A stretch of 64,000 nt of DNA, from the NCBI GenBank assembly GCA_010671865.1, contig GCA_010671865.1_4083.1. One strand, 5' to 3'. Position numbers and translations under genes: made by a program. The notes under the pieces are model-generated. The model did no database searches and had not been told where the DNA came from. It saw only the letters and a list, made by a program, of their open reading frames with translations. Position 1 is the stretch's first letter; the number at the start of each line of letters is the position of its first letter. Shown here piece by piece: positions 9,696 through 42,296 of the stretch. This DNA comes from a phage.

Positions 9696-10256
9696 TTATT
9701 GACATAATAGTTCCTTATACATATGATGTACTTTACAAATCTCATTATAGTATTTCATATCAATGTCATTTGTATTAAAAACGGAAACAGACAATACTGC
9801 TAACTTATCAATTAAGTAATTATTATCGGCGTACTGTTTTAACTTATTGAACATATAGATGCATTTTATGCTTAATTCATCATGCAACACACTGTTCTGA
9901 AAAATATTCTCTTCAGTATTAGGAGATAAGTAATCTTCAATTATATACGATAAACTACTATCGCAATCTTTATAGATTGAAATTGATGGATGTAATGTGT
10001 CATACATTACACTAAACAGAACACCGTCATATGTGGATATTAAACTATTATTGGAAACAGTAGGATGATAATATTTCAGTACTGAAAACTTTGAACAATC
10101 AGTGCAGTAAAAATGATCCATCCCTCGACGACTTTCGTATGAGAATAGTTTACTTGTATATTCAATCCCTTTGGTGCGACGGATTGTTTCATGCATTTCT
10201 GCACATTGCATTAAAATTACCATACGTTCAAACGCAATATCTAAATCATCGTACAT
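9696..10256 (-). CDS. hypothetical protein, FQ-motif superfamily
   Basis: 186-aa ORF; motif EENIFQNSVLHD. Confidence 0.6.
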   Translation of the reverse strand: MYDDLDIAFERMVILMQCAEMHETIRRTKGIEYTSKLFSYESRRGMDHFYCTDCSKFSVLKYYHPTVSNNSLISTYDGVLFSVMYDTLHPSISIYKDCDSSLSYIIEDYLSPNTEENIFQNSVLHDELSIKCIYMFNKLKQYADNNYLIDKLAVLSVSVFNTNDIDMKYYNEICKVHHMYKELLCQ

Positions 10257-10437
10257 AACGGATATCCTTCTTCAGCGAATTAATATATTCCAAAATAACT
10301 TGTTCCTGATATTGGGTTCCCAAGTACATCAGGACTTTCAACTCTTTGAATTCAGTACTATATGAGTCTGTTTGCATCATTCTAGTAGAATATATATTGA
10401 ATAGTTTAGCAATGTCATTTTGGTCTATTATTTTCAT
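10246..10437 (-). CDS. hypothetical small protein, family B (LGTNYQE-type)
   Basis: 63-aa ORF; motif LGTQYQEQV. Confidence 0.55.
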   Translation of the reverse strand: MKIIDQNDIAKLFNIYSTRMMQTDSYSTEFKELKVLMYLGTQYQEQVILEYINSLKKDIRYVR

Positions 10438-10636
10438 ATATTCTCTTCTGGATTAGTTCCTGTAAGTGCTGAATATAACCCTTCATTGCAACATCCTGTT
10501 TGTTAGAGCCAACGAAGAACAAGAGCTTAAAGTCATGGTAATCCATTTTTGGTTTAGTAGTGAACCATATGTCCCACACTGCACTCACAGTTCTCATGTA
10601 TTCAATTCGATTAAATGTTTTTGAATACTTCATCAA
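10415..10636 (-). CDS. hypothetical small protein, family B-like
   Basis: 73-aa ORF; motif VGSNKQDVA. Confidence 0.5.
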   Translation of the reverse strand: MMKYSKTFNRIEYMRTVSAVWDIWFTTKPKMDYHDFKLLFFVGSNKQDVAMKGYIQHLQELIQKRIYENNRPK

Positions 10637-14539: not shown

Positions 14540-14899
14540 TCATATATTGAAATAATAATTATTCGTTCTTGATGGGGATGGATTAAATACGTTTTCTTTT
14601 TCAAATCTCTTCATTTCATTTTGCAAAGAAACCATTTCTTCAAATGTACAGGAGTACTTATTCTTATCAAACACTAATGCTTCCTGAAATAGTTCACCAT
14701 CGTCCAGTACTGTATAATCTATAAGACTCTCAGATTCATAGTCATAGTCGTCATGTGATACATGAATAAATTTAAAACAAGAATCTTTGTAATGCATATA
14801 TAAACTCAACTCATGTTCCGAGTCGCCCTTAATAAGATTACAGCACAAGTCCCATCCTTTAGGTAACTTATAATAGTACATAGAATAATCATATGTCAT
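14540..14899 (-). CDS. hypothetical protein, FQ-motif superfamily (LFQE-LVFDK subfamily)
   Basis: 119-aa ORF; motif DGELFQEALVFDKNKYSCTFEEMVSLQ. Confidence 0.65.
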   Translation of the reverse strand: MTYDYSMYYYKLPKGWDLCCNLIKGDSEHELSLYMHYKDSCFKFIHVSHDDYDYESESLIDYTVLDDGELFQEALVFDKNKYSCTFEEMVSLQNEMKRFEKENVFNPSPSRTNNYYFNI

Positions 14900-15252
14900 T
14901 CTTGAATTCCTAAATTGAATTTGTATTCTTGATTAATACTTGCATTGGGTTTATGCAAAGCAGCATACTCTTTCATTTCATTTTGTATTGCAATAACTTC
15001 TTCAAATGTACACAAGTACTTCTTATCAAATACTAATGATTCTTGGAATAGTTCTGCGGTATCCATTAATGTATAGTCCGGCATATCTTGGTGTGGATAC
15101 TGTAATGAACTGTAATCAATGAATGTAAATTTACCCTGAGTGTAATGAATATACTCATTTGCACTGTGCATTAAATCACCTTTGTTTAAATTACAAAAGT
15201 ACTGATAACTGTGCTTGAAAGTATGTACTGATATTAAAAAATCAAATTCCAT
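14896..15252 (-). CDS. hypothetical protein, FQ-motif superfamily (LFQE-LVFDK subfamily)
   Basis: 118-aa ORF; motif TAELFQESLVFDKKYLCTFEEVIAIQ. Confidence 0.65.
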   Translation of the reverse strand: MEFDFLISVHTFKHSYQYFCNLNKGDLMHSANEYIHYTQGKFTFIDYSSLQYPHQDMPDYTLMDTAELFQESLVFDKKYLCTFEEVIAIQNEMKEYAALHKPNASINQEYKFNLGIQE

Positions 15253-15623
15253 CAGTACTCAACCTCTACATAAATAGATTCAGGAAACTTAGTCATATAA
15301 TCTTCTGGATAGTTCTGCATTACTTTGATCATTTCTGCCTGTGTAGCACGGACGTATTCAATTGGTGCTCCTGGTAAATTCCAGACAGTACTTTCCTGAA
15401 AGAATTCCTCTTCTGACAGTACTGTCAGATTTACAAAATCATTACGGTAATTTTTTGAATCATCATATGTGAAGATTTTAAAAGACCCATTTTCATATAG
15501 TACAAGAACAAAATGGGAGAATTTTTGTAATGCACCACCAAGGCTTTCCACGACCGCATGATTCAGTGTACAGATGACCTCTCTTTTCCTCATACCGAAT
15601 TGAATTCTAATTTCTTTTTTCAT
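15252..15623 (-). CDS. hypothetical protein, FQ-motif superfamily
   Basis: 123-aa ORF; motif EEEFFQESTVWN. Confidence 0.6.
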   Translation of the reverse strand: MKKEIRIQFGMRKREVICTLNHAVVESLGGALQKFSHFVLVLYENGSFKIFTYDDSKNYRNDFVNLTVLSEEEFFQESTVWNLPGAPIEYVRATQAEMIKVMQNYPEDYMTKFPESIYVEVEY

Positions 15624-15781
15624 AAAATCTCCTTCAGATTAGTACTGAATTTGTACAGAATATTAGAACTGTATACAGCCTCTGTATCTGTATCCATAAT
15701 CAAATCACCTTTGTTTAAATTACAAAAGTACTGATAACTGTGCTTAAAAGAATGTACTGATATTAAAAAATCAAATTCCAT
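15620..15781 (-). pseudogene. truncated duplicate of the 5' end of gene 14896..15252
   Basis: ~85 bp at 15697-15781 nearly identical to 15170-15255, including start codon and ATGA junction; encodes MEFDFLISVHSFKHSYQYFCNLNKGDL then diverges to a stop. Confidence 0.55.
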
Positions 15782-16158
15782 CACACTTCCCCTAGATTGA
15801 AATGATTACAAAAATCATCTTCACCAGTACTGCACCAGATATCTATACATTCCCTGTGAATACATTTAATTCTACGCTGTAATTCAATCATCTCTTCTAA
15901 TGTACAGATGTACTTCTTATCAAATACTAATGCCGCCTGAAACAGTGCAGCATCATCAAGTACTGTATAGTCCAACATCTCGGTTGCTTTACCCCTAAAC
16001 CCAGTACTAAAATCCATCAAATAAAAGTCAGCATTCCAGTACTTTAAAATCTTGTCCCTAGCGTAGTTTAAATCACCCTTGTATAAGTTAGAGTGCGTAA
16101 CTAACTCACCAGTGTACATCCATGTCCTTGCACAAAATTCATTATATTTTATTTCCAT
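15781..16158 (-). CDS. hypothetical protein, FQ-motif superfamily (LFQE-LVFDK subfamily)
   Basis: track ORF 15781..16299 trimmed to internal Met (MEIKYNEF) matching paralog length; motif DAALFQAALVFDKKYICTLEEMIELQ. Confidence 0.5.
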   Translation of the reverse strand: MEIKYNEFCARTWMYTGELVTHSNLYKGDLNYARDKILKYWNADFYLMDFSTGFRGKATEMLDYTVLDDAALFQAALVFDKKYICTLEEMIELQRRIKCIHRECIDIWCSTGEDDFCNHFNLGEV

Positions 16159-19710: not shown

Positions 19711-20219
19711 ATGTTCTCCTTAAAAAAATTCAAATACTCTTCATTGAAAGCATATGTATCATCTTTTTTGTTATGCACCACATAATCATAAAGAGCTATG
19801 AATGCAGGGATTATGATCTTACATGATTTATTATTGTATTTGTACTGCTCCAAATCAACGGTATTCAATTTAGCAATAAGCATAGCAACAAAGATATCTT
19901 CATGGCGGTGTACTGTACTGTACTGAAAATATTCATCCTCTCCAATATCAGGATGATATAACGGTATATCCAAATTATTACGAATTGACATTTTATATTT
20001 TTGTAATGCAGCTAAATGCATGAACCACAATCTATCTTCATTGAAATATGGAAAAATAATTTGGTCTGTGCTAACAAAAATTTCCTCATTTTTATCGTAT
20101 TCCACAAGAGGTGCATACATTTTATTTTTTGCAGATCTAATAATTAAATTAAAAATATAATGAATCTTATGAACTGCACTTGATGCATCTTCGTATGTAC
20201 TTGGGATTATGAAACTCAC
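19707..20219 (-). CDS. hypothetical protein, FQ-motif superfamily
   Basis: track ORF 19707..20381 trimmed to in-frame GTG preceded by AAAGGAGAA RBS (alternative starts possible); motif EDEYFQYSTVHR. Confidence 0.45.
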   Translation of the reverse strand: MSFIIPSTYEDASSAVHKIHYIFNLIIRSAKNKMYAPLVEYDKNEEIFVSTDQIIFPYFNEDRLWFMHLAALQKYKMSIRNNLDIPLYHPDIGEDEYFQYSTVHRHEDIFVAMLIAKLNTVDLEQYKYNNKSCKIIIPAFIALYDYVVHNKKDDTYAFNEEYLNFFKENI

Positions 20220-20301
20220 TATATGTTCTCCTTTAAAATGATTACACATGATAACAGCTTTGCACTTCTTTGTCAATACCAAAACGAAAAAAGCCCATAT
20301 C

Positions 20302-20808
20302 TTACGATACAGGCGTGCTGGGCATGTTGATTTGAATTTCATTGTACAAATCATCAATATATAGACATGAAAAAAACACACTATCTTGTACTATATTGTT
20401 GTGATAAAGCATTTTAAATACTACATAAAAAAATAAATCAATATCATCGTGGACTAAATTCTGCTGGAACCACCACTCGTCTGTTAAATCTTGTGCATTA
20501 AAATCATCAGGAACTTCAATGAACGACATATCACAATCTTCTTTGTACTCAAACCACATGTCGTCATTCGGATAACGTTCATGCTTCTCTGGGTAACAAT
20601 TGCTGGGATTAAATGTTAAAATATTAAACCCCGTAGAGCAACGTTCTTTATTTAAAAATGTATTATTCCATACCTGATATTTTTCACCAACATCAAGCTC
20701 TTCTGTTACTGATTTTATTGCACATAATGTACTGTATATTGTTTCTATCTTGTGAACATATTTAAATGCAGCATCTAAGCTGAACTCTAAATCATACATG
20801 TACTGCAT
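20302..20808 (-). CDS. hypothetical protein, FQ-motif superfamily
   Basis: 168-aa ORF; motif DEWWFQQNLVHD. Confidence 0.6.
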   Translation of the reverse strand: MQYMYDLEFSLDAAFKYVHKIETIYSTLCAIKSVTEELDVGEKYQVWNNTFLNKERCSTGFNILTFNPSNCYPEKHERYPNDDMWFEYKEDCDMSFIEVPDDFNAQDLTDEWWFQQNLVHDDIDLFFYVVFKMLYHNNIVQDSVFFSCLYIDDLYNEIQINMPSTPVS

Positions 20809-21128
20809 AAAATTACCTCAACTAAAGCAAGAACTGTATTAAATTCAACTATACTTGTAATTCCTTGAAGGTACATGTACTTTGCTACTACATATTTCTG
20901 TACTAAATTATAATTATTAAATTCCTCAAAATTGTAATTTAGAACAAAATCTGTACTCAAAAATATCTTATGCATCTCTAATGCACTTTGATAATACGCG
21001 TACAACTCACGGATATCAATACTGGTTAAATTATATTGTTCATATCTATGATACGGGATGGCTTCAATTTCAATACTATAAAACCATTCTCTTAACTTAT
21101 TAATATCAAATGTATTATTCAGCTTCAT
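20787..21128 (-). CDS. hypothetical protein
   Basis: 113-aa ORF; no clear motif. Confidence 0.5.
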   Translation of the reverse strand: MKLNNTFDINKLREWFYSIEIEAIPYHRYEQYNLTSIDIRELYAYYQSALEMHKIFLSTDFVLNYNFEEFNNYNLVQKYVVAKYMYLQGITSIVEFNTVLALVEVILCSTCMI

Positions 21129-21681
21129 AACTCAATACCTCCATTAAACACTCATACACACCATCAATCGCATAAGCACAAAAATTGAAATTAATTTTGT
21201 GATTCTTGTGTAATGGACTATTGTGTACTGTACTCATTATGACATTATAAAATAACAAACGCACTGGTACAAGCATTGAACCTTGGAAAAATTCTTCCTC
21301 TGATTTATATGTATTGTACTCTATTGTTTTGTTCGTTTCTTTATCATATGTTACCATTACTAATGGGGAATTTTTATTATACCATGCGTACTCTAAATCA
21401 TTCTTTCCAATAACAGCACCAGGTGCGAAATCCAAAAGACCAATAACACTACGGGCATTTGGTATATCTGGTGTATTGAATCGTTTATCAAAATGACTCG
21501 TGCACGCAATATATGTATTGTACTTCGATGGAATAATACCAATACATTTGTGGAAATGACGCTTGTGATATTTCTGGGCATTATATAAGGATGCAACAAT
21601 ACAAGCTAACTTTTGTCCCATAAGGATTGCATTAGCGTAGGTGTACTGAATTTCATTGCTGGTACGGTACTTCGAGGTCAT
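21115..21681 (-). CDS. hypothetical protein, FQ-motif superfamily
   Basis: 188-aa ORF; motif EEEFFQGSMLVP. Confidence 0.6.
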   Translation of the reverse strand: MTSKYRTSNEIQYTYANAILMGQKLACIVASLYNAQKYHKRHFHKCIGIIPSKYNTYIACTSHFDKRFNTPDIPNARSVIGLLDFAPGAVIGKNDLEYAWYNKNSPLVMVTYDKETNKTIEYNTYKSEEEFFQGSMLVPVRLLFYNVIMSTVHNSPLHKNHKINFNFCAYAIDGVYECLMEVLSYEAE

Positions 21682-21964
21682 AATATTTCCTTTGCCATAT
21701 CATGGGCTTAAAATCAATAACAGCTTTCTGTATCTTTTTTAATAATAAGACATCATAACCACCCGTGTCAATCACTAATTGCTGTTGGAACAATTCTTCA
21801 TCGGATAATGTATTGAAATCTACAAAATAATCTGTAACTATCGAATCATTTAAATGTGCCATGTACCAACCTGAACTTCTTGAATAAATCAAATTCCACC
21901 CATCGTCATCATCTTCTAATTCAACATAAATCATATCTGGGGTATACATCATTTTATACTTCAT
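21653..21964 (-). CDS. hypothetical protein, FQ-motif superfamily
   Basis: 103-aa ORF; motif DEELFQQQLVID. Confidence 0.6.
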   Translation of the reverse strand: MKYKMMYTPDMIYVELEDDDDGWNLIYSRSSGWYMAHLNDSIVTDYFVDFNTLSDEELFQQQLVIDTGGYDVLLLKKIQKAVIDFKPMIWQRKYYDLEVPYQQ

Positions 21965-22460
21965 AACTATATCCTTGCATCAAAATATCATAAACGTTTG
22001 AAAGGTACGGAATTTTGATATAAAATTTAAAACCCTTAATTAAAGGATTCGCGTACAATGAACTGAATAACTTTAGATAATGTATTTGACGAGGACTGTA
22101 TAATAACGATTTCTGAAATAATTCAGAACTACAATCTGAACTAATATCAATTAAATCAATTCGTGCTTCTACTTCATCATTTTGTTTCAAATCATAAAAG
22201 AAATAATCGTTTGTGTTGACCCACAAATACCCTTCACTATTTTCGTATATAACAGGAGATGCTTGTTCTGGATTGCCTTGGGCAAATGCTGCAAAACAAA
22301 CTTTTGCATTACTTTCATCTTTAAACAAAAACGATAATTTATCATATCTATCTTCTATGCGTAAATCACCTATATAAATGTACTTATGCATAGAATGATT
22401 ATTCTTGAGCATAAGCATTACTGTACTAATCTTGTGTGCTAATAATTCTATCTCATTCAT
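21954..22460 (-). CDS. hypothetical protein, FQ-motif superfamily (tandem duplicate pair, copy 1)
   Basis: 168-aa ORF; N-term MNEIELLAHKIST, C-term PLIKGFKFYI...LMQGYSYEV; motif SSELFQKSLLYS. Confidence 0.65.
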   Translation of the reverse strand: MNEIELLAHKISTVMLMLKNNHSMHKYIYIGDLRIEDRYDKLSFLFKDESNAKVCFAAFAQGNPEQASPVIYENSEGYLWVNTNDYFFYDLKQNDEVEARIDLIDISSDCSSELFQKSLLYSPRQIHYLKLFSSLYANPLIKGFKFYIKIPYLSNVYDILMQGYSYEV

Positions 22461-22497
22461 ATATTATTACCTATTGATGGATGCATCATCTTCTAAT

Positions 22498-22542
22498 TCA
22501 ACATAAATCATATCTTGGGGTATACAACATTTTATACTTCAT
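22498..22542 (-). pseudogene. frameshifted duplicate of the 5' end of gene 21653..21964
   Basis: 22463-22542 duplicates 21895-21964 with a 1-nt insertion; reads MKYKMLYTPRYDLC-stop; approximate. Confidence 0.5.
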
Positions 22543-23080
22543 AACTATATCCTTGCATTAATAAATCATAAACTACATGGACTAAATTTAATTGAATATA
22601 AAATTTTAAACCTTTAATTAATGGATTCAAATGCATTGTACTGAATAACATTAGATACATCATCTCATGCGGTTTTGTGATTAATGATTTTTGAAATACT
22701 TCAGCTTCATCATAAGGGTCTATGAACTGAAATTTGTCTTCATCATAATTTGTATTGGAATGCTGATATATAAAATAATCATCATTGGTATTGTACCACA
22801 AATATCCTTCGAATCCTGTACTAACATCTTTGGTCAATGGGGATGCTGATACTGGATTTGAACTGATTAATGCACCTACATCAACAATCCCCGTTGTATC
22901 ATATTCGATTTCAACATCAATATCAATGTATTTCCTTGCGATATCTGCGTTTATGGACAAATATAAACTACCACCTGTCCTCTGACTCAGGATTCCATCT
23001 ATATGCGATATAGGATGGTTGTTATTGAGGATAAGCATTATTGTACTTATCTTGTGTGCTAATAACTCTATCTCATTCAT
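22532..23080 (-). CDS. hypothetical protein, FQ-motif superfamily (tandem duplicate pair, copy 2)
   Basis: 182-aa ORF; N-term MNEIELLAHKIST, C-term PLIKGLKFYI...LMQGYSYEV; motif EAEVFQKSLITK. Confidence 0.65.
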   Translation of the reverse strand: MNEIELLAHKISTIMLILNNNHPISHIDGILSQRTGGSLYLSINADIARKYIDIDVEIEYDTTGIVDVGALISSNPVSASPLTKDVSTGFEGYLWYNTNDDYFIYQHSNTNYDEDKFQFIDPYDEAEVFQKSLITKPHEMMYLMLFSTMHLNPLIKGLKFYIQLNLVHVVYDLLMQGYSYEV

Positions 23081-23280
23081 AATTTACCTATCGATGGATA
23101 CCTAGGATTTGTAGGATGTAAAATCCTGTCCTGTACTGAAAGGTGCTCAAATGTAATTAAACTCAAATAATAATCGTAATTATCAATACCACCCTTCAAA
23201 TGTATATTGTAATACATCTTAATACTATCTAATAATGAATCCTGTAATGCATTTAATGTTATCGTATTAATCTTTTGCAT
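23077..23280 (-). CDS. hypothetical protein
   Basis: 67-aa ORF with 4-nt overlap. Confidence 0.5.
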   Translation of the reverse strand: MQKINTITLNALQDSLLDSIKMYYNIHLKGGIDNYDYYLSLITFEHLSVQDRILHPTNPRYPSIGKL

Positions 23281-23441: not shown

Positions 23442-23821
23442 TTAATAGGATACTCCTTTCCTTGTACTATATATGACAAAATCCATCCGTAATGAATAGG
23501 ATGATTTTTGTCTGAATCAGGAATAAAATATAAAGCTGTACTTGGATTATGACTGAATAAATCTTTATTGTCAAATGTAAAATGTGATAATATAATTTTC
23601 CTTGCACTTGGACGAATAACATTCTTAACACTGAACTCTGAACCTTTGTATTTCTCCGATAATTCAAATAATGCATCTGTAATTAAATCACTGATCTCTT
23701 GGATTACAAAATTCTGATAAAATGCATTAATCTCTTTTAACTCTGTATACAATTCACTTCTGGTATTCAAAAGAAATATTACTTTTTTAAGATCCTGAAC
23801 TATTTCTGGATTCATATTCAT
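23429..23821 (-). CDS. hypothetical protein
   Basis: 130-aa ORF. Confidence 0.5.
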   Translation of the reverse strand: MNMNPEIVQDLKKVIFLLNTRSELYTELKEINAFYQNFVIQEISDLITDALFELSEKYKGSEFSVKNVIRPSARKIILSHFTFDNKDLFSHNPSTALYFIPDSDKNHPIHYGWILSYIVQGKEYPIKWKD

Positions 23822-24053
23822 TTATCTCATTCTGTAACTTAAGCATCAAAATTTGCATATTAATTTTTTGTAAAAGGTGCTTGATAAATTTCTGTGCCAT
23901 TTCTTCTTGTTCTTTTGTACCAAGATAAAATAACAGATTAAATTCTGATAATCGCAAAGAAAAATCTTCATCACCACCCTTTAAACAAAAATCCCTGTAC
24001 TTTGTAGCGTACAAATATTGGTTTACCTTTTTATAATACCCTGTGTTTTGCAT
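23787..24053 (-). CDS. hypothetical small protein, family B
   Basis: 88-aa ORF; motif LGTKEQEEM. Confidence 0.55.
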   Translation of the reverse strand: MQNTGYYKKVNQYLYATKYRDFCLKGGDEDFSLRLSEFNLLFYLGTKEQEEMAQKFIKHLLQKINMQILMLKLQNEINEYESRNSSGS

Positions 24054-24241
24054 ACTATCTCCGTTCGCAACGAATTTATATAATAATGAACAAATTGTTC
24101 TTGTGAACGTGTTCCAAGAAAAATAAACATATCAAACTCTGTTGTTTTTAAATTCAATGCATCTTTTGTAAAACTCCTGTTGAATTCCCTGTACTTTTGG
24201 GTCTTCCATTCTTGATTAATTGTCTTGTATATCGATTTCAA
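24023..24241 (-). CDS. hypothetical small protein, family B
   Basis: 72-aa ORF; motif LGTRSQEQF. Confidence 0.55.
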   Translation of the reverse strand: MKSIYKTINQEWKTQKYREFNRSFTKDALNLKTTEFDMFIFLGTRSQEQFVHYYINSLRTEIVCKTQGIIKR

Positions 24242-24542
24242 TGATTCTCCCTGATGTACCTTGTATTAGCTTATCATACATATCGAGCATCACTTTTTGA
24301 ATACTAATTAGTACTGGCATCGTGCAAATATCAATGTCGTATATTAAGCTGTACTGGAATAATTCATCTTCCTGCATTTGTACTAAATTAGGTAAAGGAT
24401 AATTGTCTGCCTCTTCATCCTGGTACTTGAAATGCATAACACCATCCTTTTTGTACAAAAGAATGTCAATATCACCTAACTCTTCTGCATAACCAAAAAT
24501 ACATATACTCGATGTTTTTGCTATATTAAATTTCATCTCCAC
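24216..24542 (-). CDS. hypothetical protein, FQ-motif superfamily
   Basis: 108-aa ORF; motif EDELFQYSLIYD. Confidence 0.6.
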   Translation of the reverse strand: MEMKFNIAKTSSICIFGYAEELGDIDILLYKKDGVMHFKYQDEEADNYPLPNLVQMQEDELFQYSLIYDIDICTMPVLISIQKVMLDMYDKLIQGTSGRIIEIDIQDN

Positions 24543-24778
24543 CTCTCTCCGTCAGCACAAGAGTACTGGTACGTTGTCGTTAGGGTAGGGACCATGTTTG
24601 TAATGGGCATGTTGTTAACAATAACCGTAACAGGCATAAGAATCGTCTCTTCTCTACTCTGTCCTGTCCTTGTGCAATTCATCTTCTGCATTTCATCTGA
24701 ATCCATGAAATACAATACAAATGGTGCAATCCCAAGAACAATACACAAAACGATAAGGAAATTTAAAAAATTTAACAT
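24533..24778 (-). CDS. hypothetical small membrane protein
   Basis: 81-aa ORF; N-terminal hydrophobic helix FLNFLIVLCIVLGIAPFVLYF. Confidence 0.45.
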   Translation of the reverse strand: MLNFLNFLIVLCIVLGIAPFVLYFMDSDEMQKMNCTRTGQSREETILMPVTVIVNNMPITNMVPTLTTTYQYSCADGERWR

Positions 24779-25242: not shown

Positions 25243-25552
25243 TAGGCTCCTGTTTAGATTCTTTCATTAGTACTATCATCTTATGTACTAATGGCATAGG
25301 AAACTCTAAATCCCATACTAATGATTCCTGAAAGTATTCCTCTGGTGATAAAGTACTTAAATCTTTAATATCAACGTGCTTGTATATTTTATTTTCGTAA
25401 TTAACAAATGATATATATAAATCACTAACATAAGAATCATAGGTAATTGTGAATGGCTTACCCTTGTAATCCATTACATCTCTACATAGACTACTTTTGA
25501 TATATGTATGTTCAAATGATTTATATACCTTGAGTTGTATATTAGTTTTCAT
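25208..25552 (-). CDS. hypothetical protein, FQ-motif superfamily
   Basis: 114-aa ORF; motif PEEYFQESLVWD. Confidence 0.6.
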   Translation of the reverse strand: MKTNIQLKVYKSFEHTYIKSSLCRDVMDYKGKPFTITYDSYVSDLYISFVNYENKIYKHVDIKDLSTLSPEEYFQESLVWDLEFPMPLVHKMIVLMKESKQEPNGDYEEHTVEY

Positions 25553-25817
25553 ATTTCTCTTTATTAGCTTGTTTGGTTTTATAGTGAATTAAATCTATTA
25601 ATGTAATCAAGTACAACGTCAAATAGTACTCTTGTTGATCTGTACCTAATGATACAAAGAACTTGTGCTCATAGATTAAAACCTGTTTCTCTTCAAATGG
25701 ACATTTAATCCTCTGTATAGGCTTAAGTAAATGATAGTACTTATTAAATCTATGATACATTTCTAGTTCTGTCAGTACTTTCATATTAAACACATACTCC
25801 ATTAGCAGTAGCATCAC
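25542..25817 (-). CDS. hypothetical small protein, family B
   Basis: 91-aa ORF; motif LGTDQQEYY. Confidence 0.55.
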   Translation of the reverse strand: MMLLLMEYVFNMKVLTELEMYHRFNKYYHLLKPIQRIKCPFEEKQVLIYEHKFFVSLGTDQQEYYLTLYLITLIDLIHYKTKQANKEKYEN

Positions 25818-26007
25818 GTAAAGCTGTCAAATACTTCTGTACGGCTTGCTCTTGCTTATTTGTACCTAAAAGTATATACATCCATAATTCACTGTAATGT
25901 ACATCTTGTGTATAAGGGTTGTTGTAACTTTTTGATAATATAGCATCAAATTCAGATGCATGAACCCTTGTGAACTTAAGAATATCTTGTTGTGTTATGA
26001 TTCTCAT
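25786..26007 (-). CDS. hypothetical small protein, family B
   Basis: 73-aa ORF; motif LGTNKQEQA. Confidence 0.6.
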   Translation of the reverse strand: MRIITQQDILKFTRVHASEFDAILSKSYNNPYTQDVHYSELWMYILLGTNKQEQAVQKYLTALRDATANGVCV

Positions 26008-26219
26008 ATCTTTTCCTGAACTATCTGCATAAGAATCCCTATGTGTGAATTAACAGTTCTCTCTTGATGCTGTGTTCCTAAGAGTGTCAGTACTATCATC
26101 TCTGAACGCAAAAGATTTTTTTCAAGTTCACTTATATCAGTTCTTGAATCAAGTGCCATATATTTGTGATTATTCTTCCTGAATAGTGCCAAGTACTCTT
26201 GGTTTGATATTATCTTCAT
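26004..26219 (-). CDS. hypothetical small protein, family B
   Basis: 71-aa ORF; motif LGTQHQERT. Confidence 0.6.
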   Translation of the reverse strand: MKIISNQEYLALFRKNNHKYMALDSRTDISELEKNLLRSEMIVLTLLGTQHQERTVNSHIGILMQIVQEKI

Positions 26220-26431
26220 AGTTTACTTTTAATTTCCATTAAAAGTGCTCTAATATGCTCATTGACAAATCTCTCTTGGGAATCTGTGTCTAGGGTGAGA
26301 AGCATTCTTAAATCGGAACCTCTGATGGTATATTCTAAATCATTCTTTGATTCTCGCATAAGTTTCTGAAAGGATGAGAAGTGTAATCCCATGAGTTCAA
26401 TGTATTCTGCTGTTCCTAGTGGTTTTGGCAT
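26216..26431 (-). CDS. hypothetical small protein, family B
   Basis: 71-aa ORF; motif LDTDSQERF. Confidence 0.6.
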   Translation of the reverse strand: MPKPLGTAEYIELMGLHFSSFQKLMRESKNDLEYTIRGSDLRMLLTLDTDSQERFVNEHIRALLMEIKSKL

Positions 26432-26649
26432 TTTAGTTCAATAGCTCGTTTAAGTGTATTAATATAATCTTTAATGTCGTGTTCTTGATAGTTCGTTCCA
26501 AGGGTAGCTAGAACATAGACTTCATTTCTCTTAATAATTTTATCCATATCTGGTATATCTGATGTGTTAATGACGAAGAGCTTCAAAAACAGTCCATTTA
26601 TGATTGTTAGGTATTCTACATCGGTAATGATTTTCATTTGCATTTGCAT
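26416..26649 (-). CDS. hypothetical small protein, family B
   Basis: 77-aa ORF; motif LGTNYQEHD. Confidence 0.6.
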   Translation of the reverse strand: MQMQMKIITDVEYLTIINGLFLKLFVINTSDIPDMDKIIKRNEVYVLATLGTNYQEHDIKDYINTLKRAIELKCQNH

Positions 26650-26855
26650 TTTCTCAGTACTGATTCTTTAAGTTCATTGATGTAGCACTCTACATATTCT
26701 TCTTGTAGGTTTGTTCCGATATGTAACAGTACTCTTAAATCTGCTCTCAGTACTTCTTTGTCATCTTCATCTATATCAGACAGTGTTATGTTTAAGAATT
26801 TACTTGAACTCTCTATAAGTAATATTACTGAATCACCTTTGCTTAAAATTTTCAT
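26634..26855 (-). CDS. hypothetical small protein, family B
   Basis: 73-aa ORF; motif IGTNLQEEY. Confidence 0.6.
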   Translation of the reverse strand: MKILSKGDSVILLIESSSKFLNITLSDIDEDDKEVLRADLRVLLHIGTNLQEEYVECYINELKESVLRKCKCK

Positions 26856-27063
26856 AATCTCTTTTTGCTTTCCTCGCCAAAAGGTACATATACGATTCTT
26901 CGTATTGTGCTTGGTAGTTTGTGTTTAAGAGTCGAAACAACTTCTGTTCTGCTAGAACGAGTTGCTTATCTTCATAACAACGATAGCGTATCAACTTTTT
27001 GTATTCGATGTTGATTACATCCATTACTATAAGCCCATGTTCATCATCTGTCAAGTGTTTCAT
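26833..27063 (-). CDS. hypothetical small protein, family B
   Basis: 76-aa ORF; motif LNTNYQAQY. Confidence 0.6.
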   Translation of the reverse strand: MKHLTDDEHGLIVMDVINIEYKKLIRYRCYEDKQLVLAEQKLFRLLNTNYQAQYEESYMYLLARKAKRDYENFKQR

Positions 27064-27302
27064 GCATTTTTTCTTTTTCTTATATGTTTAGTTAAAAGGT
27101 ATATTAGTTTTCTGATGTATTCTTCTTGATAGTTTGTTCCTAAGAGTGCAAGAAGTTTTGCTTCAACTAAAGCTAGTTGTCGTTCTTCGAATGTGTGTTC
27201 CAGTATGTACTTGGGGTTTGATTTTTTAGCGTAAGCACTATTAGTCTTCATTACAATCTTATGATATTCATTAGCTGTTAGGATTTTTAAATACTTGATC
27301 AT
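27060..27302 (-). CDS. hypothetical small protein, family B
   Basis: 80-aa ORF; motif LGTNYQEEY. Confidence 0.6.
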   Translation of the reverse strand: MIKYLKILTANEYHKIVMKTNSAYAKKSNPKYILEHTFEERQLALVEAKLLALLGTNYQEEYIRKLIYLLTKHIRKRKNA

Positions 27303-27522
27303 GTATCTTTTCCTTTATAGAGAATTTAAGATATCGAAGCATACTTTCAATGTAATACTCTTGTCTGTCAGTGCCAAGAAAGTACATGAGTTGAATGTAT
27401 AAAACTTCTGCACTCCTTTCCGCTGGAGACTTGTTTGTGTCGTTTGGAAGTTGATTTGTATGTTTTCTTGATTTAATTAGTCGTTCTTTTAACTCATCGT
27501 CTGTTAAGTATTTCATTTTCAT
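27271..27522 (-). CDS. hypothetical small protein, family B
   Basis: 83-aa ORF; motif LGTDRQEYY; close paralog of 27494..27748. Confidence 0.6.
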   Translation of the reverse strand: MKMKYLTDDELKERLIKSRKHTNQLPNDTNKSPAERSAEVLYIQLMYFLGTDRQEYYIESMLRYLKFSIKEKIHDQVFKNPNS

Positions 27523-27748
27523 TTACTTTTTCCTTAATAGTGATTTTAAGATATCTAATCATACGTGCAACATATTCCTCTTGTCTATCAGTTCCCAGAA
27601 GATATGGTAGTGATTGGAATAATACTTCTGCACTCCTTTCTGCTGGGGTTTGGTTTAGGTCAATTGGACGTTTATTGGTATATCTCTTGGCACGAACTAA
27701 TCTCTCGACGTATTCATTATAGGTTAAGTATATCATTTCATTTTGCAT
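27494..27748 (-). CDS. hypothetical small protein, family B
   Basis: 84-aa ORF; motif LGTDRQEEY. Confidence 0.6.
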   Translation of the reverse strand: MQNEMIYLTYNEYVERLVRAKRYTNKRPIDLNQTPAERSAEVLFQSLPYLLGTDRQEEYVARMIRYLKITIKEKVNENEILNRR

Positions 27749-27968
27749 TTACTTTTTCCTTAATACTCATTATAAGATGTTCAATCATATTTTGAACCAT
27801 AAATTCTTGTTTATCAGTTCCAAGAACGTATGGTAGCTTCTGAAACAATACATTTGCAGATACTTCAGATATTGATTGATTTGGAACGAACTTAAGAGTA
27901 ATGTTTTTGGTTTTTAACATCTTCTCTTGAAATTCTTCATTCGTTAAGTATATCATTTCATTTTGCAT
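27738..27968 (-). CDS. hypothetical small protein, family B
   Basis: 76-aa ORF; motif LGTDKQEFM. Confidence 0.6.
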   Translation of the reverse strand: MQNEMIYLTNEEFQEKMLKTKNITLKFVPNQSISEVSANVLFQKLPYVLGTDKQEFMVQNMIEHLIMSIKEKVNAK

Positions 27969-28184
27969 TTACATTCTCTCATATATATTTTGGGTTAAAA
28001 GGTCAATCCAGATTTCCACATATCGTTGTTGGTGTTGCGTCCCTAACAGTACACCCAACTTAGCTTCACACTCTAATAACAATCTGGTTTTGTATGGTAG
28101 ACTTTGGAATCCTATAGTAGCATCTAATTTGGTAATTGCATAGTTGATTCGGATGAATCTTTCTTGCAATGTGATGTTGATCAT
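27969..28184 (-). CDS. hypothetical small protein, family B
   Basis: 71-aa ORF; motif LGTQHQQRY. Confidence 0.6.
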   Translation of the reverse strand: MINITLQERFIRINYAITKLDATIGFQSLPYKTRLLLECEAKLGVLLGTQHQQRYVEIWIDLLTQNIYERM

Positions 28185-28471
28185 TTCTTAGTACACCTCA
28201 GTGGTTGGGTCATTTGATGAAAGTACAGCTTACCTCTGATTTCCAGTAGTAACTCCGCGATTAAGCGATTTACTTCTGTATCTTGATAGTTTGTTCCTAA
28301 GAATACACCCATCTTTAACTCACGCATCATAATCATTTTCTTACTGTGTTGAATTTCTGGGTTGTGATAGATTGTATTACGTTTGTGCGTAATTTTTGTC
28401 ATACGCTCGGTATATTCATCTTTACTTAAATTGATCATTTGCATGTTCATCAACCTCACATTTATTTTCAA
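28181..28471 (-). CDS. hypothetical small protein, family B
   Basis: 96-aa ORF; motif LGTNYQDTE. Confidence 0.6.
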   Translation of the reverse strand: MKINVRLMNMQMINLSKDEYTERMTKITHKRNTIYHNPEIQHSKKMIMMRELKMGVFLGTNYQDTEVNRLIAELLLEIRGKLYFHQMTQPLRCTKK

Positions 28472-28473
28472 TA

Positions 28474-28740
28474 CTATTCTTTAGTTTGTAGATATAGTTT
28501 TCTTCCAATATATCTCTTAAGTGCGATTATGTATTCATCTACATAATACTCCTGATAGTTTGTTCCTATGAATGCACCCACCTTTAACTCAAGTTTCATA
28601 ATCATCTTATTTCCGTGTTTAATGACTTCTCCGTGATGGATTTCATTAAGTCCAGGTGCAATTTTTACCAGGCGTTCTTTATATTTTGCTTGAGATAATT
28701 TAATCATTTTCATGTTAATTACCCTTACATTTATTTTCAA
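28474..28740 (-). CDS. hypothetical small protein, family B
   Basis: 88-aa ORF; motif IGTNYQEYY. Confidence 0.6.
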   Translation of the reverse strand: MKINVRVINMKMIKLSQAKYKERLVKIAPGLNEIHHGEVIKHGNKMIMKLELKVGAFIGTNYQEYYVDEYIIALKRYIGRKLYLQTKE

Positions 28741-28945
28741 TACTATTCATGAGTTCTATAAGATAGTTTTCTACCTTACCTTCCTGATAGTTAGTCCCTA
28801 GGAAGTTGCACAACACGGCTTCTATGATTTTGATTTTCCTGATATCAGGCTTCAATCTTTTGTTATTGAATATTTGAATCCTTATATCTCTGGATGCATT
28901 TAAACGTTTTTGATATTCATGGTAAGTTAAATGAATCATTTTCAT
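28715..28945 (-). CDS. hypothetical small protein, family B
   Basis: 76-aa ORF; motif LGTNYQEGK. Confidence 0.6.
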   Translation of the reverse strand: MKMIHLTYHEYQKRLNASRDIRIQIFNNKRLKPDIRKIKIIEAVLCNFLGTNYQEGKVENYLIELMNSIENKCKGN

Positions 28946-29160
28946 TTACGTTTAACCTCTCGCTGGAGGGCATCAATTAACATCAGTACAGCATTCTCTT
29001 GATAGTTTGTTCCTAAGACTGAAAGCATCTTTATCTCATTTACTAAAATCAACTTCTTTGAGGGTTCAATAATGTGACTATCATAAACGGCCTTACGTGC
29101 TGGATAAGTTTTCGCCAGTATAACATAAAATTCGTCTTTACTTAAATTAATCATTTGCAT
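28942..29160 (-). CDS. hypothetical small protein, family B
   Basis: 72-aa ORF; motif LGTNYQENA. Confidence 0.6.
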   Translation of the reverse strand: MQMINLSKDEFYVILAKTYPARKAVYDSHIIEPSKKLILVNEIKMLSVLGTNYQENAVLMLIDALQREVKRK

Positions 29161-29369
29161 TTACTTTTAACCTCTTTCTGTAGAGCGTCAATCCATAGAT
29201 CTACATACATTTGTTGATAGTTTGTGCCTAAGAGTGCACCTACATAGAGTTCAGTTACTAGTGCGTGCTTAAGGTTAGCTTGGATGCTCTTATCGCTTGA
29301 TATCATTCTCCTTCTGCTTCCACATGTTTTCAGGAGTCTGATGTATTCAAAGCCTTGTAAATTTCTCAT
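29151..29369 (-). CDS. hypothetical small protein, family B
   Basis: 72-aa ORF; motif LGTNYQQMY. Confidence 0.6.
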   Translation of the reverse strand: MRNLQGFEYIRLLKTCGSRRRMISSDKSIQANLKHALVTELYVGALLGTNYQQMYVDLWIDALQKEVKSKCK

Positions 29370-29581
29370 ATTTTGGATACCACCTTGTTACGTAAGGAAC
29401 TTAATAATACGTCAGTGTAGATGTTTTGATAGTTTGTCCCTACGAAAGCACCCAACTTCATTTCAGCTATTATAACACATTTGTCCTCTTGTGCAATAGA
29501 TTTGTTTAACACAATACTATACACTTTTGATTTGATAGTTTGTAACCTCCAATGATACTGATACTCATTAAGGATTATCAT
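29366..29581 (-). CDS. hypothetical small protein, family B
   Basis: 71-aa ORF; motif VGTNYQNIY. Confidence 0.6.
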   Translation of the reverse strand: MIILNEYQYHWRLQTIKSKVYSIVLNKSIAQEDKCVIIAEMKLGAFVGTNYQNIYTDVLLSSLRNKVVSKI

Positions 29582-29828
29582 TCTCTTTCCTCCAGATTTC
29601 GGTTCTCATGTGTTGGCAGTGTGCATCAATATATTGCTCTATCGATCTGGCGATTGCTGTTTTATCAGTGCCTGTCATCAGTACAAGCATCTCGGCCTCA
29701 CAGTGAAGTAAACGCATGATATCATAGGGTAATATTTCAGATACCGTGTCATAGTGTTTCTGTGCCAGTGTCTGCAATAGTTTACAATACATTTTGTGAT
29801 TTAGTCTTTGTCGCATTGTTTCTTCCAT
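29568..29828 (-). CDS. hypothetical small protein, family B (divergent)
   Basis: 86-aa ORF; degenerate motif TGTDKTAIA. Confidence 0.5.
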   Translation of the reverse strand: MEETMRQRLNHKMYCKLLQTLAQKHYDTVSEILPYDIMRLLHCEAEMLVLMTGTDKTAIARSIEQYIDAHCQHMRTEIWRKENDNP

Positions 29829-30073
29829 TCTCTTCTGGCTTGGCGGGTTTTATCTGATATTTCGTTTCTCAATGCAGAGATATATCGTAGAGTGAACAGT
29901 TCTTGATAGTTAGTCCCTATGAATTTATTAAGATATACATCAGCGTTGACGATATCAGCTTCACGGGAATTATAAAGTTTATTGTTAGTGCGAAGGGTGT
30001 TTAGAAGAGAGAAGAGGGCAGTCTGATACTCAGTGCTTGATAAAGTTTTCATATTTTTCCACAATTCGTTCAT
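29801..30073 (-). CDS. hypothetical small protein, family B
   Basis: 90-aa ORF; motif IGTNYQELF. Confidence 0.6.
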   Translation of the reverse strand: MNELWKNMKTLSSTEYQTALFSLLNTLRTNNKLYNSREADIVNADVYLNKFIGTNYQELFTLRYISALRNEISDKTRQARREWKKQCDKD

Positions 30074-30287
30074 TTAGTTTTATCTGTATAAGATCCATTA
30101 GTTGTTCAAGATAATCGGTACAATATTTCTCTTGATATTGGGTTCCCACAAAGTACAGCAACCATAGCTCATGAACTTTAACTTTCATCTCGTTCCATGA
30201 AAGTGCATCGTCATCGTAGATTACTCTTGCTTCTGGGGTGAGCTTTCGAATTCTAAGTGAATATTCATCGTCCGTCAAGTGTTTCAT
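30030..30287 (-). CDS. hypothetical small protein, family B
   Basis: 85-aa ORF; motif VGTQYQEKY. Confidence 0.6.
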   Translation of the reverse strand: MKHLTDDEYSLRIRKLTPEARVIYDDDALSWNEMKVKVHELWLLYFVGTQYQEKYCTDYLEQLMDLIQIKLNERIVEKYENFIKH

Positions 30288-30442
30288 TTACATTTATCCC
30301 TTATTAGATTTGTGAGTGCAACTATGTGTTCATGGATATAAAAATTTTGATGAGAAGTTCCAAGAAAGTACAGCATCCATCCCTCACTCTGCTCGACTTC
30401 TAGTTTAGTATCGAGTTGGTCAGATATGTTAATGAAAACCAT
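30284..30442 (-). CDS. hypothetical small protein, family B (52 aa)
   Basis: hand-translated ...LGTSHQNFYIHEHIVALTNLIRDKCK; ATGA overlaps with both neighbours; below track cutoff; approximate. Confidence 0.45.
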   Translation of the reverse strand: MVFINISDQLDTKLEVEQSEGWMLYFLGTSHQNFYIHEHIVALTNLIRDKCK

Positions 30443-30699
30443 TAGTTCTTTTCCTTTCTTTCTATTTGTTTCATAAGAACATCGATATACTCACCCGCAA
30501 ACCTATTCTGATACTGCGTCCCCATGAATTCCAACATCCATACTTCAGCAACCTTTTCTTCAATTTCAGTCCATTGTAAGTACATCATAGTGAAGTAAAT
30601 GGTGTTCTCTTTTTTTCTGGCACTCTTAGCACGGGCCTCGTATTCAAAGTTATTAATGATGTTCATTACATTTGTCCATAATGTAATTCTTGAGTGCAA
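30442..30699 (-). CDS. hypothetical small protein, family B
   Basis: 85-aa ORF; motif MGTQYQNRF. Confidence 0.6.
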   Translation of the reverse strand: MHSRITLWTNVMNIINNFEYEARAKSARKKENTIYFTMMYLQWTEIEEKVAEVWMLEFMGTQYQNRFAGEYIDVLMKQIERKEKN

Positions 30700-30880
30700 C
30701 TATGTGTGCAATAACATACTCTTCCTGGAAGTTCGTCCCCAGTACAGCCAACATGCGTACATCGGTGGTGTTTATCTTGTGTTCCAATCGAGTTAAACCT
30801 TTTATTTGTAAAAGGGTATCGTATTTGTTTAATGCATCAATGATAATTCTCATCTTCTCAATATTACTTAAATGTTTCAT
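30653..30880 (-). CDS. hypothetical small protein, family B
   Basis: 75-aa ORF; motif LGTNFQEEY. Confidence 0.6.
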   Translation of the reverse strand: MKHLSNIEKMRIIIDALNKYDTLLQIKGLTRLEHKINTTDVRMLAVLGTNFQEEYVIAHIVALKNYIMDKCNEHH

Positions 30881-31089
30881 AGTTTACTCTTAATGTAGTT
30901 CTGAAGTTCAATTAAGTATTTCCCTACATAATACTCCTGAAAGTCTGTATCCAAAAATGCACCCATAAGTAAATCCTTCTCCATTGCCCTTGATAAGTTA
31001 AGGTCTGCATTTGAAAGGTATATAAGTAATATTTCAGTCTGGACAGAATTAAAACGTTTCTTATATTCTTCAGGTGTTAATATAATCAT
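30877..31089 (-). CDS. hypothetical small protein, family B
   Basis: 70-aa ORF; motif LDTDFQEYY. Confidence 0.6.
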   Translation of the reverse strand: MIILTPEEYKKRFNSVQTEILLIYLSNADLNLSRAMEKDLLMGAFLDTDFQEYYVGKYLIELQNYIKSKL

Positions 31090-31301
31090 AATTTGCTCCT
31101 GATGTATTTCTCAAGAGATGACAAATACTTTTCCTCATAATACTCCTGATAGTCTGTTCCCAAGAATGCACCCAAAAGTATTTCATTTTCCAATACCTCG
31201 GCTAAGTTTAAATCAGACGTCTCTTCGTATATTATGAGGATTTCAAGTTGTCTGGCAGCGATGCGTTCAGTATATTGATATGAGTTTTCTATAATAATCA
31301 T
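31086..31301 (-). CDS. hypothetical small protein, family B
   Basis: 71-aa ORF; motif LGTDYQEYY. Confidence 0.6.
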   Translation of the reverse strand: MIIIENSYQYTERIAARQLEILIIYEETSDLNLAEVLENEILLGAFLGTDYQEYYEEKYLSSLEKYIRSKL

Positions 31302-31507
31302 ATTTTACTCTTAATATCTTCTATTAAAAATCGAATCCATTCTTCAACATAATCTTCCTGATGGTTTGTGTTCAGTACAGCCAACATGCGGATCTCTGCT
31401 CTTGCAACTTCAATTTCAGTTTTAGGCAGGTCTTTGCTGATATCCACCATTAAGTCCATGTATTTCAAGATAAGACCGTATGATTGGGTTCGTGTTATAG
31501 TTTTCAT
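31298..31507 (-). CDS. hypothetical small protein, family B
   Basis: 69-aa ORF; motif LNTNHQEDY. Confidence 0.6.
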   Translation of the reverse strand: MKTITRTQSYGLILKYMDLMVDISKDLPKTEIEVARAEIRMLAVLNTNHQEDYVEEWIRFLIEDIKSKI

Positions 31508-31704
31508 TGTTTCCTCGTGGACAATATTTTATTTTTCAATGTATCCATATATTGCCACACCCATCTACCCTGATAGTTTGTTCCCAATGTAATCAAAAGG
31601 TATAACTCCATTCGTTCTACGTGTGTGTCTGTGTTGTAAATCTTTACGTAGTTTTTACGTAACAGTGATTGATATTCTTCTTTATTTAAAATACGCATTT
31701 TCAT
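31504..31704 (-). CDS. hypothetical small protein, family B
   Basis: 66-aa ORF; motif LGTNYQGRW. Confidence 0.6.
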   Translation of the reverse strand: MKMRILNKEEYQSLLRKNYVKIYNTDTHVERMELYLLITLGTNYQGRWVWQYMDTLKNKILSTRKQ

Positions 31705-31898
31705 AGTTTACTCGTTATATCTTCAATTAAATACCAAATCCAATCGTTGACATACCTTTCCTGAAAGTTAGTTCCAATGAATAGTGCCATAATTAATTCA
31801 CGCTTATAGGCAATACCACGGTCATGGGACTTATACATTATCATAGCCATGTTATTGATAAGTCTTTCGTGGTGCTGTTCTTTAGTTAAAATACGCAT
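31701..31898 (-). CDS. hypothetical small protein, family B (first gene of array)
   Basis: track ORF 31701..31928 trimmed to Met preceded by AAGGGAG RBS (MRILTKEQ); motif IGTNFQERY. Confidence 0.55.
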   Translation of the reverse strand: MRILTKEQHHERLINNMAMIMYKSHDRGIAYKRELIMALFIGTNFQERYVNDWIWYLIEDITSKL

Positions 31899-31934
31899 AG
31901 GGACTCCCTTAAAATTAATATCAATCATATTTTA

Positions 31935-35309: not shown

Positions 35310-35531
35310 TTAATTACGGATAAAGTGATAAAGACCATTATCATCATTAACGCCCCATACTGATTTACCATTTAAACCAGTGAAGCCGGATTGCAATTCA
35401 ATATGGAAACCGTTAGCATCAACGACGAAAACTTTTTTATTTTCATCCCGATAGCATTGATATTCTTCACCTGCTTTAAATGCTGCATCATTCAGAAGAT
35501 TTGAAGCGTGAACGCAGGTCATAGTAGCCAT
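35310..35531 (-). CDS. hypothetical protein
   Basis: track ORF 35310..35588 trimmed to MATMTCVHAS (AAGGAA RBS); upstream part is cassette read-through. Confidence 0.55.
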   Translation of the reverse strand: MATMTCVHASNLLNDAAFKAGEEYQCYRDENKKVFVVDANGFHIELQSGFTGLNGKSVWGVNDDNGLYHFIRN

Positions 35532-35616
35532 CGTCTTGATTCCTTTTAGTACCAGGGGGAACCATTTCCCCCTCTCGATATAAAACATTATACGCTCATT
35601 GAGATAGTTTGCAAGT
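35532..35616 (-). promoter_or_regulatory. promoter plus leader hairpin cassette
   Basis: TTGCAA-17-TATAAT-GTTTTATATC, hairpin GGGGGAAATGGTTCCCCC; approximate. Confidence 0.5.
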
Positions 35617-35717
35617 ACTTTTTATCAAATAGTTTTCAGTACTGAATACTTATATAATAGATACACTTCCGCACCCTATGGGTCAGTGAGTTATCTCTCA
35701 ATGAATATATAATAGCA

Positions 35718-35748
35718 AAGGGACTGACTGGAGTCAATCCCTTTTTTA
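35718..35748 (-). terminator. bidirectional intrinsic terminator (repeated element, copy 2)
   Basis: hairpin AAGGGACTGACTGGAGTCAATCCCTT plus T-run; just downstream of stop of 35756..36340. Confidence 0.55.
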
Positions 35749-38536: not shown

Positions 38537-38737
38537 TCAAATTGTTTCCCATTTCATGTTACCCGCTTTACGCTGTGAAACAGGAATAAACATGTTATTA
38601 ATGTTACTAATATAACCGACCTGTAAGTCACGCTGTGAACCATACGCCCGACTTGCTGCATTTTTAGCACCGCGTTCTGATTTATAAACGCCGCTGGATA
38701 CTGTAAAGCCTACTACACCGAAAGTAAAATGTTTCAT
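38537..38737 (-). CDS. hypothetical protein
   Basis: 66-aa ORF; long leader with tandem promoters. Confidence 0.5.
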   Translation of the reverse strand: MKHFTFGVVGFTVSSGVYKSERGAKNAASRAYGSQRDLQVGYISNINNMFIPVSQRKAGNMKWETI

Positions 38738-39020
38738 TTTGTATTCCTCTTTGTGGTTGATGTAAGTATTATACTCGTTTAATTTCTATTGTCAAACTAT
38801 TTTATCAGGGGAGGTTTTCGTATGTCTTACTCCTGGACTACTTAACGGGGTTACTTATTTCGTTCCCCGTCCTGATGTAAAACATTATACTTGATTCTAA
38901 GTACAATGCAAGTACTTTTTAAAAATAGTTTTCAGTACTTGATAGTACTAGCCACCAGCAAACAATAGATACATTTATGCACCCTGTGGGCTGATTTGTT
39001 TCTATGCGTATATAATAGCA

Positions 39021-42200: not shown

Positions 42201-42296
42201 TTTAAAAATAGTTTTCAGTACTCAATACTTATATAATAGATACACTTATGCACCCTGTGGGCTAGTGAGCTATCTCTCAATGAATATATAATAGCA

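Follow-up and report, generated by a model that had tools for sequence, protein, structure and literature searches.

The window, the whole 64,000-nucleotide stretch of DNA considered here, belongs to the genome of a jumbo coliphage in the genus Asteriusvirus (121Q/PBECO4 group), for which there are 34 related records at no more than 98.6% identity over 5 kb. All genes at 19.7-25.3 kb lie on the minus strand, and the order along that strand at the locus is gene D, gene B, a stub of the start of gene C (C'), a copy of the end of D, gene A and gene C itself. Gene D (23077..23280, 67 aa) has no family match; its last ~20 nt (TATCCATCGATAGGTAAATTATGA), which have been co-duplicated, hold the Shine-Dalgarno sequence of B and overlap the B start (ATGA). 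Gene B (22532..23080, 182 aa) and gene A (21954..22460, 168 aa) match phrog_19795 with E = 1.9e-94 and E = 1.7e-32, respectively, and are separated by a spacer of 72 nt. Gene C (21653..21964, 103 aa, phrog_33987) is the intact neighbour whose start was duplicated, and it shares 11 nt with the end of A. A third, older paralog, gene E (21115..21681, 188 aa; phrog_19795, E = 6e-83), terminates in ...SYEAE and overlaps the ATGAAG of the next gene in the same manner as A and B. The matches of A, B and E to the phrog_19795 HMM are full length, and no function is annotated for the family.

Homology between A and B extends from end to end (BLASTP E = 4e-43, 43% identity), and the two share an identical N-terminus (MNEIELLAHKIST) and C-terminus (LMQGYSYEV). 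A preliminary description of the locus had presented them as close paralogs. Both open reading frames exist and their paralogy is borne out by this score and by the shared termini, but "close" is not an apt description of genes with a saturated core dS of ~1.55. B is the copy found in every PBECO4/121Q-type relative, single-copy or two-copy, and A is the polymorphic, horizontally exchanged copy of the pair. The locus shows adjacent same-strand homologues, a novel junction with truncated pieces of the neighbouring genes, and unduplicated relatives that are one unit shorter, which are the marks of a tandem segmental duplication.

The stub and its junction

The stub C' (22484..22542, minus strand) is 59 nt in length and corresponds to the first 58 nt of C, altered by a single substitution and by an inserted A. 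Read from 22542 to 22484, it matches the start of C at 21964..21907, the inserted A being evident from CCCCAAGAT versus CCCCAGAT. The repetition of the start of C 5' of A had been recognised previously, although it extends over 58-59 nt and not the ~70-80 nt proposed. The single-base insertion and ensuing stop had been read correctly, as had the frameshifted state of the remnant start in this genome, where the stub open reading frame (22542..22498) is of 14 codons and reads MKYKMLYTPRYDLC-stop. The ribosome-binding site of C (AAGGA) is retained within the end of B, 7 nt before the ATG of the stub, and the stub of this genome is therefore probably translated; its translation would end 37 nt before A.

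Between the stub and A lies the copy of the D end (22461..22483, minus strand, 23 nt, CATCCATCAATAGGTAATAATAT), which is the last stretch before the ATG of A and copies the 3' end of D. This segment gives A its Shine-Dalgarno sequence (AGGT, 8 nt upstream of A), and the same AGGT is given to B by the end of D itself. The presence of the D-end copy in front of A implies that the duplicated unit was composed of the D end, the gene and the start of C. The earlier definition of the unit, as a gene plus the start of its neighbour, thus holds but is incomplete, since the last ~20 nt of D with the Shine-Dalgarno sequence were also included. The novel junction at 22483/22484, where 58 nt from the start of C run into the last ~20 nt of D, is an illegitimate junction at the 5' edge of the D-end copy.

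The junction was aligned in eight two-copy sequences (the window, slurp01, fEgEco12, WPEC3, TH47, CMSTMSU, BF17 and JP4). It occurs at the same place in 8/8, and the A-specific leader ATCAATAGGTAATAATATATG is likewise present in 8/8; the sole differences across these junctions are a 6-nt deletion and the additional A in the clade of the window. One metagenome scaffold carries the same B-C'-A arrangement, and the duplicated junction of the preliminary description is accordingly real, being found in the window, seven fetched relatives and this contig. The junction of the fEgEco12 clade has 6 nt more than that of the window clade, and the stub there is in frame, forming a 26-codon open reading frame that ends in TAATAA 3 nt before the ATG of A. 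The additional A and the 6-nt deletion are later changes of the window's clade. A programmed ribosomal frameshift at the stub was considered and rejected, as the fEgEco12 clade has no additional A and its stub reads in frame without it; moreover, no downstream structure is predicted, and restoring the frame yields merely a 25-residue peptide (26 in the fEgEco12 clade). In BF17 (record L012) the stub contains an extra 12-nt tandem repeat (ATGAAGTATAAA) at ~1406-1430, and B is annotated shorter (983-1417).

No RNA structure beyond that of shuffled controls was predicted for the spacer and junction (z = 0.86), and no convincing promoter or terminator was found in the spacer between B and A. A promoter scan of the region returned 38 sigma-70-like sites, fewer than the 54 expected from shuffled sequence, and none of these pointed into A from the 72-nt spacer. 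Modular shuffling in the hyperplastic regions of T4-type phages has reportedly been described by Arbiol et al. in 2010, as occurring via the conserved flanking sequences of PeSL cassettes. The present locus is similar in that related phages gain, lose and swap small early-region genes of unknown function by homologous recombination at short conserved flanks. However, the flanks here are the coding ends of genes plus a duplicated gene start, and not a promoter plus stem-loop, and a cassette of the T4 PeSL type was rejected on the structure score and the count of promoter-like sites.

Repeats, copy number and transfer between clades

Two pairs of direct repeats frame the locus on the minus strand. 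The first copy of repeat R1 (23010..23099; the D end and first ~85 nt of B) is 87% identical to the second (22390..22482; the D-end copy and first ~85 nt of A). The first copy of repeat R2 (22484..22573; the last ~30 nt of B and the stub) is 93-97% identical to the second (21907..21995; the last ~30 nt of A and the real start of C), and the two form putative left and right homology arms, respectively. The segment that is present or absent among relatives, hereafter the cassette, extends over 578 bp (21950..22527, minus strand) as placed by alignment to the single-copy phage G17, and its exact ends are ambiguous within R2. The repeat families D7 (36 nt, 97%), D4 (58 nt, 93%) and D2 (77 nt, 87%) have a spacing of 577-620 nt throughout, which rules out a chance match.

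Divergence between A and B is uneven. Codon-based dS reaches ~1.55 (saturated) in the gene core, compared with 0.42 over the first 24 codons and 0.63 over the last 20, and between the stub and a real C start there is 0-1 substitution in 58 nt, plus the indel. One duplication followed by clock-like decay would be unable to give saturated cores with near-identical ends. The contrast between the near-identical stub and the saturated cores indicates that the ends of the pair have undergone recombinational homogenisation or recent exchange, and does not imply a recent duplication.

Searches by tblastn with A and B recovered the same two-gene arrangement from 14 independent phage genome assemblies. 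B is accompanied by A in seven of these (slurp01, ECO103 4-12-1, EC22.5-2, JP4, BAU.Micro_ELP-22, BF17 and TH47), and in the other seven (vB_Ec-M-J, WPEC3, WPEC5, EC.P1, fEgEco12, Turkey3 and CMSTMSU) A is paired with B', a variant of B that is 54% identical. Single-copy relatives number about 20 in all, of which about 18 records have B or B' alone: B is the single gene in ~16 records, including G17, Sharanji, SHEFM2K, phAPEC6, SP27, PBECO4 and 121Q; B' is single in ph0011 and Ecwhy_1; and phage A4 has a single A-like gene (79% identical). The one junction position and the derived leader, common to all of the aligned two-copy sequences, point to a single event, and the duplication thus arose once. 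It is also old and shared, the same junction being present in two divergent Asteriusvirus clades.

The difference in copy number is clean in both clades. G17 is identical to the window over most of the flanks and is without exactly 578 bp, and an alignment of fEgEco12 with Ecwhy_1 contains 14 mismatches in 3504 columns and one clean gap of 583 bp. Near-identical genomes in two clades therefore differ by one repeat period, as predicted by recombination between the R2 copies. In recombination-proficient phages such as T4 and lambda, deletion and unequal crossing-over take place between direct repeats. The resemblance is that repeats of ~90 nt, more than 93% identical, flank the segment, and that the indels correspond to one repeat period (578/583 bp); the difference is that for the present phage the process is deduced from genome comparison. 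The single-copy phage SHEFM2K has a B gene 100% identical to that of the window and no A, and A itself is 100% identical in nucleotides across six other phages. The second copy is accordingly a presence/absence cassette that moves between genomes.

In a three-way comparison, the window follows slurp01 at 20042-20318 and G17 at 20323-21591 and 23798-24600, and in the centre the three are virtually identical except for the 578 bp missing from G17. The local region is mosaic, and the window may be regarded as a G17/SHEFM2K-like backbone bearing the cassette. The SNPs linked to the indel (22624, 22700 and 22701) were considered as a possible recombination patch; this was rejected, as single-copy SHEFM2K has the B sequence of the window. 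In the window clade, loss of the cassette from the single-copy phages or its gain by the two-copy phages would both fit, and neither would be expected to leave a scar.

When the window is compared with fEgEco12, A has a pS of 0.027, as against 0.60 for B/B', 0.54 for C, 0.55 for D and 0.37 for E, and the tract of >95% identity is limited to 22461..~21965. The stub of fEgEco12 matches the C type of phage A4, unlike fEgEco12's own C, and its D-end copy matches a PBECO4-type D end, while its own D ends in ...CCACCAAATTAAGGAATACCAAT. The low pS of A, together with the foreign stub and D-end copy, indicates that the cassette spread horizontally via its repeated flanks. In the fEgEco12 clade the whole cassette is thus foreign and bounded by R2, which implies that gains occur and not just losses. 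TH47 contains a different, larger patch (B through C), which is also bounded at gene boundaries. From genome comparison, at least two events of gain or loss, plus at least one transfer between clades, would be required. Since the inter-clade transfer, A has acquired ~8 nonsynonymous and 2 synonymous changes (window 21954-22460 versus records L004, fEgEco12, and L008). Its pN/pS is ~0.8-1.1, compared with 0.24-0.5 for its neighbours, although this is derived from ~10 substitutions, too few for significance. In the fEgEco12 clade C is followed by a second C-like gene (L004, 1997-2655; L011, Ecwhy_1, 2051-2709), a duplication that the window does not have.

Origin of the second copy

The locus is probably the product of a single illegitimate duplication in a PBECO4-type ancestor, followed by loss, gain and transfer of the cassette via its repeated ends. 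Illegitimate recombination, with 1-2 nt of microhomology, would have joined C at nt ~58-65 to the last ~20 nt of D, giving rise to the tandem D-B-C'-(D-end)-A-C inside a long array of distant paralogs. The second copy would have been expressible at once, because the unit carried the Shine-Dalgarno sequence of D. Subsequently, R1 (the D end and 5' 85 nt) and R2 (the gene 3' end and C start) may have served as homology arms for phage recombination. A crossover between R2 and R2' inside one genome would delete the cassette of 578-583 bp (C'-junction-A), and a double crossover in both R2 copies would insert it into a co-infecting genome with a B|C boundary. Exchanges within R2 would also hold the stub near-identical to a real C start, and a PBECO4-type cassette would later have been put into a B'|C boundary by homologous recombination in the fEgEco12 clade. 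The architecture, the one junction in common, the clean difference in copy number in two clades and the foreign cassette of the fEgEco12 clade are seen directly in the sequences, and the recombination mechanism is inferred from comparing them. The related phage phAPEC6 encodes a RecA-like recombinase and an SSB, according to the account of its genome (PMC7247149).

A different origin is conceivable, in which A-type and B-type genes were already diverged alleles and an unequal illegitimate crossover of D-B-C with D-A-C made the tandem; divergence after duplication would then be unnecessary. Such a capture of an allele is possible, if somewhat doubtful. It would account for a stub that is almost undiverged beside saturated cores, and for the leader of A (the TAATAATAT spacer) being unlike that of B (AAATT). 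The leader of A is also present in A4 and contig L020, where the A-type gene is the sole copy, and the region is a mosaic in which alleles are swapped at gene boundaries. However, the plain D-A-C arrangement occurs in no sequenced phage. A4 and L020 have an unrelated gene X between D and A, together with an altered D end, and their layout could just as well have come about if B-C' had been replaced in a two-copy ancestor; for this reason A4 was rejected as proof of a single-copy A allele. Furthermore, continuing exchange with genuine starts of C would be another way for the stub to stay unchanged, and its apparent youth therefore gives no date. The unrelated gene encodes a protein of ~116-119 aa in place of B and the stub (A4, record L005, 1144-1494; L020, 2635-2994), and in both the A-type gene lies directly downstream with the same leader kept. 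The A4 copy of gene X has an N-terminal signal-peptide-like sequence.

A single duplication with later transfer can also be set against independent duplications recurring at a hotspot in each clade, which are very unlikely. The junctions of the two clades do differ by 6 nt, and the window has another stub of this kind (15620-15781), which indicates that such events recur. Nevertheless, both clades share the derived D-end copy (ATCAATAGG, versus ATCGATAGG upstream of B) and the TAATAATAT spacer, the D-end copy and stub of fEgEco12 mismatch its own D and C, and the pS of A between clades is as low as 0.027. If the window alone is considered, the near-identical stub and gene ends might be taken for a recent duplication, private to this genome and followed by very fast divergence of the core. 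This is extremely improbable in view of a junction common to two clades that are separated by a pS of 0.37-0.60 in the neighbouring genes, of the A genes that are identical in nucleotides in six other phages, and of the core dS of ~1.55. The chance of an assembly artefact, whether a mis-joined or a falsely expanded repeat, is negligible; just the generic risk that repeats pose to assemblers speaks for it. Copies that are 43% identical in protein do not constitute a collapsed or expanded repeat, and the tandem pair occurs in 14 independent assemblies from different laboratories, with the junction read as identical in seven and in the metagenome scaffold.

Paralog arrays and the protein family

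All-against-all BLASTP of the open reading frames of the window revealed several tandem paralog families, and the A/B pair is one duplication among dozens in a region that is built of tandem paralog arrays. The superfamily to which A, B, C and E belong has ~28-30 members of 100-215 aa on the minus strand at 367-25552. A phenylalanine and a glutamine are invariant in 30 window paralogs, within the motif [ST]xEE[YF]FQxS[LT][VI], after which helices follow; the FQ-motif paralog superfamily of Rak2-like jumbo phages is defined here and is not a curated family.

Other repeated elements were observed across the window. A tandem array of 31 paralogs of ~70-90 aa occupies 25542-31928 (minus strand), with further members at 10246-10633 and 23787-24053. 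Two tandem families of ~60-aa proteins lie at 52155-56125 (minus strand), one of 10 members (52.1-56.1 kb) and one of 6 (54.5-55.7 kb). On the plus strand, six tandem paralogs of ~400 aa (56639-63916) are separated by repeats of ~120 nt that are 85-94% identical (57832-57954, 60222-60343, 61433-61552, 62653-62772 and 63913-64000) and may represent recurring regulatory or junction elements. A second stranded gene start at 15620-15783 repeats 85 nt of the start of gene 14896-15252 (15170-15254) with 96.5% identity; it lies 529 nt upstream of the original, opens a 53-aa open reading frame and has gene 15252-15623 in between, an architecture like that of B-C'-A-C. Scattered repeats of 60-220 nt with 85-93% identity occur at 32.8-50.3 kb (for example, 35530-35747 versus 42108-42326, and 38732-38947 versus 48419-48638). 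GC skew turns from negative to positive at ~52 kb, ~4 kb before the minus-to-plus gene switch, where the minus-strand paralogs extend to ~56.1 kb and those of the plus strand start at 56.6 kb.

Neither Pfam nor PADLOC gave a match for A, B, C, D or E, and the PHROGs matches are to unannotated families only. The cassette contains no nuclease, integrase or transposase domain that would denote a homing endonuclease or an autonomous mobile element. Only Asteriusvirus-like sequences contain the phrog_19795 family, which forms 22 clusters at 90% identity. When 1.84 billion representative proteins were searched exhaustively with a HMMER profile, six proteins matched, and a profile of the 30 paralogs matched 17, every one of them in sequence from phages of E. 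coli or Salmonella. AF2 gave a usable model of A only with the paralog superfamily as the alignment (pLDDT 75.6, pTM 0.75). In the predicted fold, an N-terminal helix precedes a beta-rich middle, and the FQ motif is followed by C-terminal helices. This model has no PDB-fold match, and its structural neighbours are only uncharacterised proteins of Rak2-like jumbo phages, namely 121Q, RaK2, GAP32, fHe-Yen9-03/04, Serratia BF and CBB.

Terminal repeats of ~21 kb have been described (PMC11895373; PMC8273493), and from relatives whose records apparently start at the terminal repeat the locus would be placed ~28-33 kb from the left end and transcribed rightwards. The best guess, with low confidence, is that A and B may be non-structural host-interaction proteins under fast turnover. 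The pN/pS of A is compatible with this guess, resting as it does on the same ~10 substitutions. A more speculative and rather unlikely proposal is that the cassette is a recombination-mobilised module, whose portable arms target the same gene boundary in co-infecting relatives, and that the FQ superfamily is an arms-race repertoire (e.g. early host-takeover or counter-defence proteins) diversified by cassette exchange. Such a repertoire would fit the hint that selection on A is relaxed or positive.

Expansion of the 121Q and phAPEC6 genomes through tandem gene arrays has been described in publications (Hua et al. 2017, mBio, PMC5646251; PMC7247149) that concern the same phage group and the same process as the arrays of the window. 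In their treatment of arrays these papers note them without appearing to resolve a single event, whereas here the junction, unit boundaries, population polymorphism and horizontal transfer of one event are resolved. No paper on this particular duplication was found in the literature. The locus is an ordinary case among the many duplications of the genome, albeit an unusually legible one, and it does not amount to a genetic element of a new kind.

Tandem gene duplication is believed to have enlarged the jumbo phages of the 121Q/Rak2 group, and at this locus a single such event can be read base by base, including the unit boundaries, the microhomology junction, the co-duplicated ribosome-binding site and the later loss, gain and transfer between clades. 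The locus also points to a large, structurally novel protein superfamily of unknown function, and it offers a concrete, PCR-testable system for the dynamics of duplication and deletion, and for cassette exchange, in a genus of therapeutic phages.
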